Below are positions 2,255 through 8,112 of a DNA stretch of 8,112 nucleotides, piece after piece. The position numbers were made by a program, and so were the translations under genes. The notes under the pieces are model-generated. The model searched no databases. It was not told where the DNA came from and saw nothing but the letters and a program-made list of their open reading frames with translations. The first letter of the stretch is position 1. Every line of letters starts with the position of its first letter. The stretch is from a virus (taxonomy: Duplodnaviria > Heunggongvirae > Uroviricota > Caudoviricetes): IMG/VR virus record IMGVR_UViG_2563366903_000016; one strand, written 5' to 3'.

Positions 2255-2487
2255 TGCTGACTCCTTTGCCCGGCAGATTTCTCGTTGAGCTGCTTTTTAA
2301 GGGTGGCGATTTCACTTTCCTGATCCTGAATTACCTGAATTGCTTCCATGGTGATCCTCAGTGAGATTGCTGAAGTGATAACGAGCTCTGGTCTTCCAGC
2401 AGCAGCGATAACTTTTGCTGCTTCCTCATGTGCACGGGCGATGAGACGCAATTCCCGCAAAAGCTCTTTGTTGTTTTCGCTATTCAT
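2251..2487 (-). CDS. hypothetical protein (78 aa), helical/coiled-coil-like
   Basis: ATG at 2487 with GGAG upstream; charged, heptad-like sequence (ELLRELRLIARAHEEAAKV ... EIATLKKQLNEK). No family recognised. Confidence 0.5.
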   Translation of the reverse strand: MNSENNKELLRELRLIARAHEEAAKVIAAAGRPELVITSAISLRITMEAIQVIQDQESEIATLKKQLNEKSAGQRSQQ

Positions 2488-2521
2488 TTCCTGACTCCGG
2501 TGTTACTGATTTACTGGTTGT

Positions 2522-3502
2522 TTACGTACTGGCGGTGATTAACATCGCGCTGTAAGTTGCATCTTCCGTTACAGGTCCGCAGTCCGGGCAGTAGCCACCG
2601 CCATGGCGACCGCAGGCGTCGCACTGTCTCAGGGTGGCGATAACCTCCGGTGCTGATTCCCGGGTTCTTGCGCCAACGCTTCGTGGTGCCAGGATGGTGT
2701 TCATCCGGTAACCCTGATAAATGCGTCTGGTTTCCGGTGTGTCGGAATTGGAGATGGTGATGCTGGTCATGCCGCCCGTTTCCTGTGAAAGGCGGTCAAG
2801 CGCTGCCCTCAGACGAACGTGCTCGTCTTCATCGAATGGTTTTCCGTAGGCGGTAAAATTGTCCCGGCCACTGAATTGCAGGTAAGGGGGATCGCAGTAC
2901 ACGCAAAGCGTGTTGCCCATGCCGAACAGGTGACTGGCAGAGTTCAGCGTATCCTTAAAATCTGCGTGGATAAGCAGCGTTCGGGTGCTGTTTGCCTTGT
3001 CTGCAAATGCGCGGATTTCACGCTCAGGGAAGTAGGGCTTGCGGTAGCAGCCGAAAGGCACGTTAAAATCGCCTTTTCCGTTCACGCGGAACAAACTGTT
3101 AAAGCTGTGTCGGTTCAGGTACAAAAACATGGCGGCCAGTCGCAGTTCACGGCGGTCGCTTATTCCCGTTCTGCTGTTCAGGAAGGCATGATTCTCTGCG
3201 TTAAAGGTTTCGCGAATGATGAGATAGTCACCCCTGTTGTTGTGGTTCAGGAACAGGGTTTTCGCCTCGTCGATCAGGCTGTCGGTGTTGTCCCTGGCTT
3301 GCCGGTAGAAATTAATCAGCGCACCATTGGAATCACCCAGGATGTAACGCTTGTAACTGGTGTTCATGAATACCGATGCGCCGCCCACGAACGGCTCAAC
3401 CAGACAGTCGGCTTCTGGCAGGTGCGCCTTCAGTGTGTTCATGATGCGGCTTTTTCCGCCCACCCATTTCAGTGGCGTACCGGATAACAGTTCTTTGCTC
3501 AT
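2522..3502 (-). CDS. dam: DNA adenine (N6) methyltransferase, Dam family, with C-terminal Cys4 zinc-ribbon-like extension
   Basis: Dam-family signature blocks: LKWVGGKS, LVEPFVGGASVF (SAM-binding FxGxG), FLYLNR, FNVPFGCYRKPYFPE, catalytic VYCDPPY, NFTAY. Extra C-terminal tail carries CDACGRHGGGYCPDCG (CxxC-x8-CxxC). AAAGAGG RBS 7 nt upstream of ATG 3502; start overlaps the stop of the upstream ORF (ATGA). Confidence 0.9.
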   Translation of the reverse strand: MSKELLSGTPLKWVGGKSRIMNTLKAHLPEADCLVEPFVGGASVFMNTSYKRYILGDSNGALINFYRQARDNTDSLIDEAKTLFLNHNNRGDYLIIRETFNAENHAFLNSRTGISDRRELRLAAMFLYLNRHSFNSLFRVNGKGDFNVPFGCYRKPYFPEREIRAFADKANSTRTLLIHADFKDTLNSASHLFGMGNTLCVYCDPPYLQFSGRDNFTAYGKPFDEDEHVRLRAALDRLSQETGGMTSITISNSDTPETRRIYQGYRMNTILAPRSVGARTRESAPEVIATLRQCDACGRHGGGYCPDCGPVTEDATYSAMLITAST

Positions 3503-3726
3503 AACGCGGCCTCTTTGTTATAGTTTTCGTGCGTTAATAAATCCCATGACGCCCCGTTGTTTTTGCTCAGCAATCGCCAGCGAAAACCGATTCTTATTAC
3601 CAGGTAGTCGTGGGGTTTTATGCGTGAAAAATTCCGCACGCCGTCGCGGAATAAACGCAGCGATGCGCGGGCTTTTCTTTCCACGTTCAGGGGGGGGCAG
3701 CAACACACATTCAGGATGGCGACCAT
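3499..3726 (-). CDS. hypothetical small protein (75 aa) containing a C8/G8 homopolymer, translationally coupled to dam
   Basis: ATG at 3726 with strong GAGGTGA RBS 6 nt upstream, 9 nt after the exonuclease stop. Stop TGA overlaps the dam ATG (3499-3502). Codons 10-13 read through the homopolymer (TGC CCC CCC CTG). A second long open frame (3518-3706) also crosses the tract. Confidence 0.5.
   Translation of the reverse strand: MVAILNVCCCPPLNVERKARASLRLFRDGVRNFSRIKPHDYLVIRIGFRWRLLSKNNGASWDLLTHENYNKEAAL
3690..3697. repeat. G8/C8 homopolymeric tract (candidate slipped-strand site)
   Basis: Eight consecutive G on the plus strand (3690-3697), inside the 5' part of CDS 3499-3726. Confidence 0.9.
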
Positions 3727-3735
3727 GGCTTCACC

Positions 3736-4317
3736 TCATATGTTCAGGAATGGTGTTGTGAAGCGCTGCCAGATTTCTGACACGACCTTTGCCTGGTAAA
3801 TGGCGTCGCCCAGCGCGGTGTGAGCAATGGCCTCTTTTCCTGATCTGCCTGGCATTTTCCATCCAGTTGATTCAGCCATGGCGATAAGCGGGCGCATACA
3901 GCGCTCGTTCCAGTAGCACCAGGGGATGCTTTTTTCTCCGGCTGTGCGTGTTATGGCGGATTTCAGGATCGGGAAATCGAAGGATGCGCCCTTACACCAT
4001 ATGGTCAGTGAATTGCCCGTGCTTTCGTCATGCATATTGCGTGAAATGAACGCCAGAAATTCGGTTACTGCCGCAAGCTCTGTTCCCTCTGCGTTGCGCA
4101 GGCAGGATCTGGCCTCCACGGATTGTCCGGCCCACCATACGGCGGTTGCTGCATTGACGGTTCCACCGTTGCGTTCTGAATCCACCGGGTCGATGAGTTT
4201 CTCAAACTGTTTGCCCAGCTTTCCGGTGAACGGGTCGAAAAACACCGCGCCAATCGCGAATATGACTGCGTCCGGTCCGGTACCCAATGTTTCGGTGTCG
4301 ATCATGAGATGGTTCAC
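3736..4317 (-). CDS. DEDDh-family 3'-5' exonuclease (DnaQ-like fold)
   Basis: Exo I motif MIDTETLG (D-x-E), Exo II ASFDFPIL, Exo III HTALGDAIYQ (H-x4-D). Likely start is GTG at 4317 (AAGGAG 8 nt upstream; GTGA overlap with the upstream stop at 4314-4316); the alternative is ATG at 4305. Track start 4326 is a GTG directly abutting the SD and is unlikely. Confidence 0.8.
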   Translation of the reverse strand: MNHLMIDTETLGTGPDAVIFAIGAVFFDPFTGKLGKQFEKLIDPVDSERNGGTVNAATAVWWAGQSVEARSCLRNAEGTELAAVTEFLAFISRNMHDESTGNSLTIWCKGASFDFPILKSAITRTAGEKSIPWCYWNERCMRPLIAMAESTGWKMPGRSGKEAIAHTALGDAIYQAKVVSEIWQRFTTPFLNI

Positions 4318-4547
4318 TGTGTGCACTCCTTCTGTTCGGCGTTGTTCGTGAGCGTTGCAATCAGTCGTTCAATGGATGAGCAGGTTTCCTCCGGGGAGGT
4401 GTGCTTCTCTCTCGCTGTGTCAACCAGGTCACGCAGCAATTCGCAGATATGCGCACGCTCGGCTTTTCTTGCGGCCATGCTGATATGTGCATGATGGTTA
4501 GCTGGTCTGGCGGCTATTTCTCTGCCGGGTGATTCGGCTGTTCTCAT
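4314..4547 (-). CDS. hypothetical protein (77 aa)
   Basis: ATG at 4547 with AGGAG 7 nt upstream (track start 4571 is an in-frame TTG). Stop overlaps the exonuclease GTG start. No family recognised. Confidence 0.5.
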   Translation of the reverse strand: MRTAESPGREIAARPANHHAHISMAARKAERAHICELLRDLVDTAREKHTSPEETCSSIERLIATLTNNAEQKECTQ

Positions 4548-6217: not shown

Positions 6218-6643
6218 TTAAGCTGCTTTTTTACTGATACGTTTATTCCGTGAACCAGCTGCTGGCTTAAATAAAAAAAGTCGGTTTTCCCATTCGTGCC
6301 ATTCTTGCGGTGCGTTTTCAGTGAGTCGATCGCAGGCTTCATCCCATGCTTTCCGGTTGATGTAAAGTTCGGCGTTTCCGCCAGGCTTGAGAGGGTCCGC
6401 CATGTACACAGCGGGTAATTTCCCTGCTTTTGCCATGCTCACGATGGCGTCAACGGTCTTGCCGATATACATCGCAAACCCTTCTTTTGACAGGAGATGA
6501 GAAGGGTTTTGTGAAAGCCTGATTTCTTGGCGTTCAGGGGCTTTGCGCCCGGTCTTTTGGTGTGCGGTTTCTGGCGCATCTGTCAACTGATCGCACTGTG
6601 TTTCGGCAGGCGATTCAGGCGCGTTTTGAGTGACTTCTTGCAT
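6218..6643 (-). CDS. cox: Cox-like excisionase/transcriptional regulator with an N-terminal acidic extension
   Basis: C-terminal ~85 aa (EGFAMYIGKTVDAIVSMAKAGKLPAVYMADP ... AELYINRKAWDE) match my recollection of P2 Cox (EFAKLIGKSTGAVRRMIDKGKLPVIDMTDP ... AGEYWVYLPAWN). ATG at 6643 has GGAGGA 5 nt upstream; an internal ATG at 6472 also has an SD (GAAGGG) but would remove conserved residues. Divergent from the repressor gene. Confidence 0.65.
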   Translation of the reverse strand: MQEVTQNAPESPAETQCDQLTDAPETAHQKTGRKAPERQEIRLSQNPSHLLSKEGFAMYIGKTVDAIVSMAKAGKLPAVYMADPLKPGGNAELYINRKAWDEACDRLTENAPQEWHEWENRLFLFKPAAGSRNKRISKKAA

Positions 6644-6750
6644 CTGGTATCCTCCGTTATTGGTGCTATTTCTATTTAGCACCAGTTAGAGCCGCCTAGA
6701 TTGTCTCTAGGTGTGTTTGTTGATGTATAAACTAAGAGAGTTAACTTACT
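6644..6750. promoter_or_regulatory. divergent cox/C promoter-operator (switch) region
   Basis: 107-bp intergenic region between divergent cox and C. Contains palindrome TGGTGCTA-n8-TAGCACCA (6661-6684) and palindrome CTAGA-n5-TCTAG (6696-6710). Candidate -10 TATAAA (6726-6731) for the repressor transcript. Exact promoters were not resolved. Confidence 0.5.
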
Positions 6751-7050
6751 ATGTCAACTAACGTAGGTGAAAAAATTAGAATCATGCGTAAGTCTGAAAT
6801 GCTTACACAAGAAAAAATGGCTGAAATTACAGGGCTCACGGTAGCGGCCCTGCGTCAATATGAACAGGGGAGAAATGAGCCAAATCTTGAATCCACAAAA
6901 AAGCTGCTCAAGTCTCCCGTCTTCCGTAAATACCGTGACTGGTTTTTGTTCGATGAGGTCGAACCAAAGGCCGGGCAGGTGGTACCGGCTCTCGCACACA
7001 TTGGGCGAAGCGAATCGGAATCACCCCACTCCGGCAAGAAGACTGGTTAA
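6751..7050 (+). CDS. C: P2 C-type immunity repressor (99 aa)
   Basis: Length and sequence match my recollection of P2 C: EKIRIMRKSE, ITGLTVAALRQYEQGR (HTH region), and C-terminal PALAHIGRSESESPHSGKKTG against P2 PALAHFGQNETTSPHSGQKTG. Sits immediately upstream of int on the same strand, as in P2. Confidence 0.85.
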   Translation: MSTNVGEKIRIMRKSEMLTQEKMAEITGLTVAALRQYEQGRNEPNLESTKKLLKSPVFRKYRDWFLFDEVEPKAGQVVPALAHIGRSESESPHSGKKTG

Positions 7051-7116
7051 CGGTCCATCTGGCCTTTATTTCTCAAAATTGTGATCAAGATGATGTTTTC
7101 ATTGGGGGGCTTCCTT

Positions 7117-8112
7117 ATGTCGATTAAGAAGCTCGCTGATGGCAAATACTGTGTGGACGTGCGGCCTGCTGGATCTGAAGGAAGAAGATTTCGGCGGCGA
7201 TTTCCTACCCGTGGTGAAGCGGCGATGTATGAACGCCATGTTCTGACGCATTATCACGATAAGGACTGGGTCGAAAAACCTATTGAACGTAAAGCGTTAA
7301 GCGATCTTCTGGAACTGTGGTGGGTGTACCACGGTAAGAATCATCGTTATGGCGCGATGAATCGGGTCAGAATTGAAGCGGTTCTTCGTGATATGCAAGA
7401 GCTTGGTATTAACAGAAGTGACCACTTAACCCGAAAAAATATTATCAGATATCGCCTTGAATTAATGAATCGCGGAATTAAGCAGTCAACGGTAAATCGT
7501 TATTGTGCAATGATGAGCGGTTTCTTTGAAAAGCTGATTGATGTTGAAGAGTTTGTGGGTGATAACCCGTTTCACGAGATACGCAAGCTAACAATTAATC
7601 AGCCGGAAATGGCTTATCTTGCACATGATGATATTCCCAGGCTAACCGCACTTTTATCTGGCGATAATCTTAAGGCTGTATTGTTAAGCCTGGCTACAGG
7701 CGGGCGCTGGAGTGAAGTTGCCAATATTAAAGGTGAACACATAATTGGTGGGAAGGTTATTTTTATGGAGACAAAGAATGGATCGCGGCGGGTTATTCCT
7801 ATAGCTAAAGATCTTGAATCTCTGATTAAAGTCAAAGCGACGGGAAGATTAATGAACCCCAGTTATGCGATAGTCAGAAGTGCAATAAGGACTGTGCGGC
7901 CTGATTTACCAGTCGGTCAGTCTGTGCATGTTTTACGGCACACATTCGCAACTCATTTCATGATTAATGGAGGGAACATTATTACCCTTCAGCGTATTTT
8001 AGGGCACAGCACAATTCAGCAAACAATGACCTATGCGCACTTTGCGCCTGATTATCTCCAGGACGCGGTAAGGTTCAATCCGGTTGCGGAGTTGTCCAGA
8101 TTTTGCCCATAA
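7117..8112 (+). CDS. int: tyrosine site-specific integrase (P2 Int-like)
   Basis: N-terminus MSIKKLADGKYCVDVRP resembles the P2 Int N-terminus. C-terminal catalytic region has HVLRHTFATHF (His and Arg box) and the tyrosine in TMTYAHF. ATG 7117 chosen over the track GTG 7081 by homology. Complete ORF; TAA stop at 8110-8112 is the last codon of the window. Confidence 0.9.
   Translation: MSIKKLADGKYCVDVRPAGSEGRRFRRRFPTRGEAAMYERHVLTHYHDKDWVEKPIERKALSDLLELWWVYHGKNHRYGAMNRVRIEAVLRDMQELGINRSDHLTRKNIIRYRLELMNRGIKQSTVNRYCAMMSGFFEKLIDVEEFVGDNPFHEIRKLTINQPEMAYLAHDDIPRLTALLSGDNLKAVLLSLATGGRWSEVANIKGEHIIGGKVIFMETKNGSRRVIPIAKDLESLIKVKATGRLMNPSYAIVRSAIRTVRPDLPVGQSVHVLRHTFATHFMINGGNIITLQRILGHSTIQQTMTYAHFAPDYLQDAVRFNPVAELSRFCP

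Follow-up and report, generated by a model that had tools for sequence, protein, structure and literature searches.

This report concerns a DNA adenine methyltransferase gene, and the short cysteine-rich tail of its product, in an 8,112-nucleotide stretch of DNA from a tailed phage (Caudoviricetes; IMG/VR record IMGVR_UViG_2563366903_000016), hereafter referred to as the window. The window shares 99% identity with a segment of the E. coli DETEC-S792 chromosome beside chpSB and ppa, and represents the early region of a P2-like prophage. The open reading frame (ORF) runs from 2522 to 3502, exactly as an earlier note on this DNA had it, and lies on the minus strand, which that note had not given. 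It encodes a methyltransferase of the Dam family, here called the prophage Dam, which is composed of a catalytic core resembling that of E. coli Dam (EcoDam) and a C-terminal tail with four cysteines (Cys4). The tail contains a mini-module of ∼28 amino acids (aa) that recurs in the recombination exonuclease RecE and in other phage proteins. Both the Dam-family identity of the ORF and the sharing of the module with other proteins are near-certain.

The ORF matches PF02086 (MethyltransfD12) over residues 13-266 (E 4.8e-51; 174.4 bits against a cutoff of 22) and the NCBIfam model TIGR00571 ‘dam’ (221.1 bits; cutoff 114.85). A phmmer search of PDB chains recovered the crystal-structure sequence of EcoDam, 2g1p (E 3.9e-51), with residues 11-290 of the query aligned to residues 8-267 of the 278 in EcoDam. 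Together with the DPPY motif at residues 204-207, these matches uphold the Dam-like core recognized in the earlier note. Matches to DpnM (E 1e-33) and T4 Dam (E 3e-11) are weaker, and RefSeq annotates the same protein as ‘DNA adenine methylase’ (WP_016232593.1 in NZ_CP116067). Because it scores 214.1 bits on the equivalog model of the housekeeping Dam, NF008152, below the cutoff of 441, the prophage Dam is not the orthologue of the host dam gene. The top PADLOC model is that of an orphan methyltransferase (oMTase; residues 9-292). This Dam variant is present in 29 of 5426 complete E. coli genomes, and every time it is chromosomal. The start codon is preceded by an AAGAGG Shine-Dalgarno sequence at a gap of 7 nucleotides, and overlaps the TGA stop codon (3499-3501) of an upstream ParE-like ORF of 75 aa; this ATGA overlap suggests that the two genes are translationally coupled.

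The core resembles EcoDam, T4 Dam and DpnM, D12-class alpha-type enzymes of the GATC group, in its fold as judged by sequence, in the DPPY and FxGxG motifs, in the recognition hairpin, and in K12. The S-adenosylmethionine (AdoMet) motif I, of the FxGxG type, reads EPFVGGASVF at residues 36-45, the EcoDam counterpart being EPFVGAGSVF, and its F38 and G40 are invariant in an alignment of 41 Dam sequences (A2) whose members are ∼50% identical overall. According to the earlier note, target specificity could not be read from the sequence; in part, it can. EcoDam recognizes GATC through base and phosphate contacts made by K9, Y119 (intercalation), N120, L122, R124 (the key guanine contact), P134, and Y138 (PMC4417163). 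The aligned counterparts are K12, F134, N135, L137, R139, P149, and Y153; six of the seven are identical, the seventh is the conservative change of Y119 to F134, and N135 and R139 are invariant in A2. Because the contacts are kept to this extent, with a single Tyr-to-Phe change, the prediction that the prophage Dam is GATC-specific is well founded. Apart from the Phe in place of the intercalating Tyr, the prophage Dam differs from EcoDam in a 13-aa insertion at residues 108-120 and in its C-terminal end, which is an 11-aa basic stretch in EcoDam and a 36-aa Cys4 tail here. The number of GATC sites in the window (26 observed, 31-39 expected) reveals no marked avoidance and is uninformative.

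Query residue 290 corresponds to EcoDam residue 267, and the tail beyond that point is a net gain of 25 aa. This is shorter than the extension of 50-60 residues past the end of EcoDam given in the earlier note; insertions within the core, such as the one just mentioned, supply the rest of the 48-aa excess over EcoDam. The cysteine string CDACGRHGGGYCPDCG covers residues 294-309, with Cys 294, 297, 305, and 308 arranged as two knuckles, CxxCG and CPxCG. The C-terminal Cys4 module of the earlier note is thus present, and its four cysteines are invariant in A2, but the spacing is CxxC-x7-CxxC rather than x8, with the loop of seven residues being GRHGGGY. The consensus of the ∼28-aa module is CxxCGxxGGGxCPDCGxVMGDATY. 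E. coli Dam and T4 Dam, against which that note had called for an alignment, lack the Cys4 element, as does DpnM. Zinc binding by the module is a reasonable expectation because of the cysteine pattern and its invariance.

All full-length proteins among the 120 best database matches bear the tail, and 116 of the 118 tail-bearing matches keep all four cysteines. They represent E. coli, Klebsiella, Enterobacter, Citrobacter, Salmonella, and Raoultella, and for the most part share only 48-53% of their residues with the query. When the E. coli clade is compared with the Klebsiella-type clade, identity amounts to 69% in the module (residues 292-320) but 49% in the catalytic core, so that the tail is more strongly constrained than the methylase core. 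The tail is a clade feature, being the rule in a single clade of P2-like (Peduoviridae) prophage Dams of Enterobacterales. The earlier note had held that a tail common in ordinary phage Dams would count against its proposal, and this holds in part: the tail is usual in that one clade, and absent from most of 1042 phage records with a Dam homologue, which match only to about residue 291. The Peduoviridae Dams of Salmonella SW3, SW5, and SI7, Enterobacter phiT5282H, and the Klebsiella prophage CP052639 occupy the same place in the early operon, between cox and the replication gene A. They share the tail pattern VCxxCGRxGGGxCPDCGPVMGxxTY, and their overall identity to the prophage Dam is ∼47-51%. 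These phages often also bear a Dcm-type methyltransferase, whereas the window has none.

The module is shared with RecE. The tail alone (42 aa) matches the NCBIfam RecE model NF007259 at positions 526-552 of 877 (E 2.5e-5), PHROG 20376 ‘exonuclease’ (E 9.5e-9), and PHROG 2082, and in tblastn searches it picks up exoVIII/recE genes in many lambdoid phages. In the RecE (exonuclease VIII) of the E. coli K-12 Rac prophage the copy is located at residues 517-540, in the N-terminal region and ∼25-60 aa upstream of the nuclease domain; it is thus internal, whereas the copy in the Dam is terminal, and the remainder of the two proteins is unrelated. RecE residues 515-547 and the Dam tail (RQCDACGRHGGGYCPDCGPVTEDATYSAML) have identical spacing and share, among other residues, CG, GG, CPDCG, V, and DATY; the Dam-side stretch aligned with RecE 517-540 is CDACGRHGGGYCPDCGPVTEDATY. 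The RecE copy contains no Lys or Arg and is embedded in acidic, Q/E/P-rich low-complexity linkers. The function of RecE residues 1-563 is unknown, but in linear-linear recombination the full-length protein works better than the nuclease domain by itself (PMC11611040). The nucleotide sequences of the Dam tail and recE are 58% identical, which rules out a recent gene exchange between recE and dam. With identity at third codon positions as low as 37.5%, the sharing is old and has been kept up by selection on the protein.

A profile built from Dam tails only (A1) was used for a HMMER scan of 1.84 billion representative proteins, and gave 109 matches, with the RecE-like proteins P0145 and P0146 at E 2.7e-9 and 2.8e-9. 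The true single-copy carriers that remained after filtering were Dams; RecE proteins with a PD-(D/E)XK nuclease (P0151, P0168, P0187); fusions of RecE-N (PF06630), the module, and a DEDDh 3'-5' exonuclease (P0145, P0146, P0158); proteins with RecE-N, the module, and other C-termini (P0149, P0152, P0165); and small proteins (65-190 aa) in which the module lies at or close to the C-terminus (P0127-P0129, P0132, P0154, P0159). Large repeat proteins (P0122-P0126 and others; up to 3368 aa and up to 18 matching stretches) were discarded as false positives: they are cysteine-free and match the second half of the profile only. Their repeat, ...GWTPE..VTGDATYTAxF, probably belongs to cell-surface proteins and was judged a chance resemblance, not homology. 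An alignment of module copies from Dam, RecE, and small proteins (A3) has C, C, C-P-D-C-G, and Y as invariant residues, and G8, the GGG loop, V, G, and T as nearly invariant ones. The module seems to have been attached independently to different early proteins of temperate Enterobacterales phages.

Species-representative genomes contain 16 module loci, and Enterobacterales account for all except two of them. An Acidobacteriota locus (L021) was rejected as a false positive. Another locus (L016), in a metagenome-assembled genome labelled Veillonella parvula (JAGZPX010000007.1), encodes an E. coli-type RecE-like protein of 812 aa with the module; this contig most likely stems from an enterobacterial prophage and was misbinned or is a contaminant. 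In IMG/VR the module was found at no fewer than 485 loci, and the best 80 of these divide into 27 Dams, 51 RecE-like proteins, and 2 small proteins. We found no entry dedicated to the module in Pfam-A, NCBIfam, PHROGs, or PADLOC, and no account of a zinc element for either RecE or the phage Dams in the searchable literature, where queries for ‘RecE’ were partly swamped by ‘receptor’. A word-index protein search with the 42-aa tail returned one fragment only, this index being ill-suited to so short a query. The module is absent from YdaE, the Rac ‘zinc-binding protein’ encoded beside recE.

Outside E. coli, the Dam tails run past the module into short acidic ends (...AEGF, ...QEPF, ...GEPF), for example ...GAFDGAEGF or ...ETQEPF. 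The Peduoviridae Dams compared above carry such an end (...EGF/...EPF), while the E. coli tail (...LITAST) is without it. Some RecE-like proteins (among P0149, P0150) end in ...DDEHMPDF. These endings resemble the acidic ...DDDIPF tip of bacterial SSB.

The surroundings of the Dam gene are those of a phage early operon (Table 1). The order of genes on the minus strand is Cox, the DUF4761 and DUF4754 proteins, a DEDDh exonuclease, the ParE-like ORF, Dam, two small ORFs, DUF4406, and the replication endonuclease A. The flanks of the Dam gene (the ParE-like ORF, two small PHROG families with no assigned function, the 3'-5' exonuclease, and DUF4406) include no restriction endonuclease, and the prophage Dam is an orphan (solitary) methyltransferase. 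RefSeq names the ParE-like ORF ‘ParE family toxin-like protein’ in related prophages; no obvious antitoxin gene accompanies it. The standalone exonuclease shares 39% identity (E 3e-38) with the domain of this kind that lies behind the module in the lambdoid RecE-like protein P0146, and in fusions of this type the module sits ∼60 aa upstream of that domain. Because the two are fused in P0146-type proteins and are operon neighbours in the window, there is a hint that the module and this DEDDh exonuclease family travel together, in one polypeptide or side by side. The link is limited by phages SW3 and SEN5, which have a module-bearing Dam without the exonuclease.

Table 1. Features of the prophage Dam and its surroundings in the window
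Feature	Position	Strand	Basis and details
ORF, Dam-family N6-adenine DNA methyltransferase	2522..3502	minus	ORF list; complete, 326 aa plus stop
Translation start region	3499..3516	minus	Read from sequence; Shine-Dalgarno AAGAGG 3510-3515, ATG 3500-3502
Catalytic Dam core, residues 11-290	2633..3472	minus	Alignment with EcoDam residues 8-267
Target-recognition beta-hairpin, residues 130-153	3044..3115	minus	EcoDam alignment and contact residues of PMC4417163; contains F134, N135, L137, R139, P149, Y153
Catalytic motif IV DPPY, residues 204-207	2882..2893	minus	Read from sequence; invariant in alignment A2
Cys4 mini-module, residues 292-320, RQCDACGRHGGGYCPDCGPVTEDATYSAM	2543..2629	minus	Alignment A3, RecE profile NF007259, PHROG 20376
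Variable C-terminal end, residues 321-326, LITAST	2525..2542	minus	Mean column identity 0.43, against 0.82 in the module
ParE-like toxin-domain ORF, 75 aa	3499-3726	minus	PF24732, E 2e-17; PHROG 1525
DEDDh/Rv2179c-like 3'-5' exonuclease, standalone	3736-4326	minus	PF16473, E 8e-51
Cox	6218-6682	minus	
C-like helix-turn-helix repressor	6751-7050	plus	
Tyrosine integrase	7081-8112	plus	
Replication endonuclease A	start runs off the left edge of the window	minus	
C4 antisense RNA	925-1012	minus	Rfam RF01695, 82 bits, E 1.7e-15
isrK Hfq-binding small RNA	1048-1122	minus	Rfam RF01394, 64 bits
Hypothetical ORF, 157 aa	1249-1722	plus	RefSeq hypothetical
Hypothetical ORF, 149 aa	5687-6136	plus	RefSeq hypothetical

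Two further observations concern the early operon as a whole. A C4 antisense RNA and an adjoining isrK small RNA lie in the orientation of the operon between the DUF4406 gene and the replication gene A, upstream of small ORFs at 647-868 and 162-578. The stretch looks like a regulatory cassette of the P1/P7-type c4/ant-like or Gifsy IsrK-like kind in a P2-like prophage. Two ORFs on the plus strand oppose the early operon, and the product of the 157-aa ORF is hydrophobic. Neither has a PADLOC match, and the 149-aa ORF is also without a Pfam match; they may be moron or superinfection-exclusion genes.

On balance, and with a confidence only a little better than even, we regard the prophage Dam as an orphan GATC-type Dam of a P2-like prophage equipped with a portable zinc-knuckle docking tail. 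The enzyme would be expressed from the early (Pe/cox-side) operon, and would most likely methylate the adenine of GATC in both phage and host DNA while the prophage is induced and replicates as a rolling circle. Phage orphan Dams are well known as anti-restriction and replication-support enzymes. The proposed methylation of GATC soon after induction, on phage DNA in rapid replication as well as on host DNA, follows established knowledge of phage Dams. The last 36 residues would lie outside the methyltransferase fold and contain an autonomous Cys4 zinc knuckle of ∼28 aa, predicted to consist of two rubredoxin-like knuckles (CxxCG and CPDCG), a glycine loop, and then VMGDATY and a short helix. 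Such a module may act as a zinc-stabilized protein-protein docking peg that ties these enzymes of DNA processing to the same partner, which is probably encoded by the host. The tail would leave the methylated sequence unchanged and would not be a specificity element.

The charge of the tail bears on this proposal. Net charge averages -1.4 over the module and -4.3 over the 25 aa that follow; the acidity of the module and of its linkers makes a DNA-binding role less probable, and favors docking. Of the two functional ideas put forward in the earlier note, an effect of the tail on DNA targeting is disfavored on these grounds, and mediation of an interaction with another factor would be the better candidate. 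A small folded recognition element on a flexible tether fits these properties. We nevertheless hold the docking role only tentatively, at somewhat less than an even chance. If there is a partner, it is more likely to come from the host than from the phage, because unrelated enzymes carry the module, no phage family is shared, and the module is restricted to Enterobacterales. The clustering of all ORFs within 4 kb, in both directions, of 80 IMG/VR loci revealed no phage-encoded partner family common to Dam- and RecE-type loci, and yielded only generic repressors, integrases, antisense artefacts, and exonuclease. The module is confined to genomes of Enterobacterales and their phages. A more far-reaching version of the docking proposal is that the module is an unrecognized autonomous docking knuckle of temperate Enterobacterales phages that brings Dam, the 5'-3' exonuclease RecE, the DEDDh 3'-5' exonuclease, and the small proteins together at a single hub of the host, for example a component of the replisome, of DNA ends, or of repair. 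We consider this version doubtful.

Several observations weigh against a docking tail. Natural variants without an intact module exist: in Klebsiella phage 3LV2017 (Dam at 2345-3484) the module is replaced right after the last core strand, ...EVIGVLR; Salmonella phage SEN5 (Dam at 2486-3469) retains the first knuckle, followed by an additional cluster of cysteines, CAQCCPGIAACEEGWSFDCCGNCDIC, the tails of SEN4 and SEN5 both continuing after the first knuckle into a different, cysteine-richer sequence; and in Klebsiella phage Kp4845-1 and the database cluster P0032 the fourth Cys is changed to Tyr. These variants show that phages can do without the module and remain viable, and what it contributes could be small. 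Recombination is still carried out by RecE fragments from which the module is missing (PMC11611040). The structural evidence is also poor. All zinc-ribbon Pfam families scored below threshold, the best being PF08271 (7.6e-4 among 26 module sequences). The zinc ribbon of the earlier note is retained as an appended Cys4 element with a weak likeness to such ribbons. The AlphaFold2 model of the full protein, made with the 41-sequence alignment, has a mean predicted local distance difference test score (pLDDT) of 53. The model of the tail alone (26 sequences) reaches a pLDDT of 61, with beta-bridges at the knuckles and a helix over 25-35 at low confidence, and Foldseek gave no match of this model in the PDB with E below 2; both models are too poor for a structural claim. 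Finally, all carriers to which a function can be assigned are enzymes that act on DNA, and this leaves room for a role in nucleic-acid binding.

The same natural variants lend themselves to a purely structural explanation, in which the tail is a zinc-stabilized cap, or an oligomerization or stability element, that has no partner and spreads as a small self-folding unit. The loss, replacement, or point mutation of the tail in some apparently viable phages is what this explanation would predict, and the failure to find a co-occurring phage partner gene agrees with it. However, the non-ligand residues of the GGG loop and of VMGDATY are kept across unrelated proteins, and the module is conserved above the level of the Dam core; both exceed the needs of a generic zinc staple. 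In addition, the isolation of the RecE module within acidic low-complexity linkers suits a recognition element better than a domain cap. We judge the structural explanation improbable, if the most serious of the competitors.

Somewhat less probable still is that the tail is a zinc ribbon that binds nucleic acids, providing affinity for DNA or single-stranded DNA, processivity, or steering to forks or ends, and does likewise in RecE and the exonucleases. The DNA-related functions of the carriers speak for it, and so does the sub-threshold likeness to zinc ribbons of the TFIIB type and others, a class with many members that bind DNA or RNA. The module shares two CxxC knuckles (CxxCG/CPxCG) with zinc ribbons and rubredoxin knuckles (PF08271, Zn_ribbon_3, DZR), but its glycine loop of seven residues is much shorter than in classical three-stranded ribbons, and the VMGDATY extension is module-specific. 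Sequence matches of the tail in the PDB, to TFIIB, rubredoxin, and chain 9qtr_i, are weak, at E 4.7e-4 or weaker. The acidic charge of the module, its RecE copy devoid of Lys and Arg, and the acidic linkers all argue against contact with DNA. The EcoDam-like recognition hairpin is, moreover, intact, and an additional reader of GATC is not needed.

The Cys4 centre could also be a redox- or zinc-sensing switch that couples the activity or stability of the enzyme to oxidative stress at induction, a role that Cys4 zinc sites can serve. In favor of such a switch, the best PDB match of the tail is chain 9qtr_i, and papers citing 9QTR describe MtrI, a small oxygen-stress-responsive protein of Methanosarcina; that this chain is MtrI is assumed, not confirmed. 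The match (E 4.7e-4) is, however, short and marginal and probably reflects the knuckle pattern alone, on account of which 9qtr_i was rejected as a homologue of the tail, and redox control is not indicated at the locus; we regard a switch as very improbable. The least probable reading, that the cysteine pattern is a chance product or a decaying, functionless remnant, could appeal to the few lineages that lost one cysteine or the whole module, but is effectively refuted, as far as conservation data can tell, by the near-universal retention of the four cysteines in tail-bearing homologues, by conservation of the module above that of the core, by the amino acids kept relative to recE despite saturated third codon positions, and by E-values down to 1e-9 against 1.84 billion proteins.

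The methyltransferase itself is routine, and the interest of the locus lies in its tail, a compact, strongly selected, and undescribed mini-module that ties the Dams of P2-like phages to RecE, a workhorse of recombineering. Should the module be only a structural staple, its recognition would amount to a minor improvement in annotation. The module is located within the N-terminal 560 residues of RecE, which improve linear-linear recombination (PMC11611040), and its binding partner could explain this effect. Identification of that partner could show how phages position their DNA enzymes, and could yield a small portable targeting tag. If the module does lead to a shared host hub, this would be the first functional handle on the N-terminal region of RecE, and the phage Dam would be spatially targeted rather than freely diffusing.

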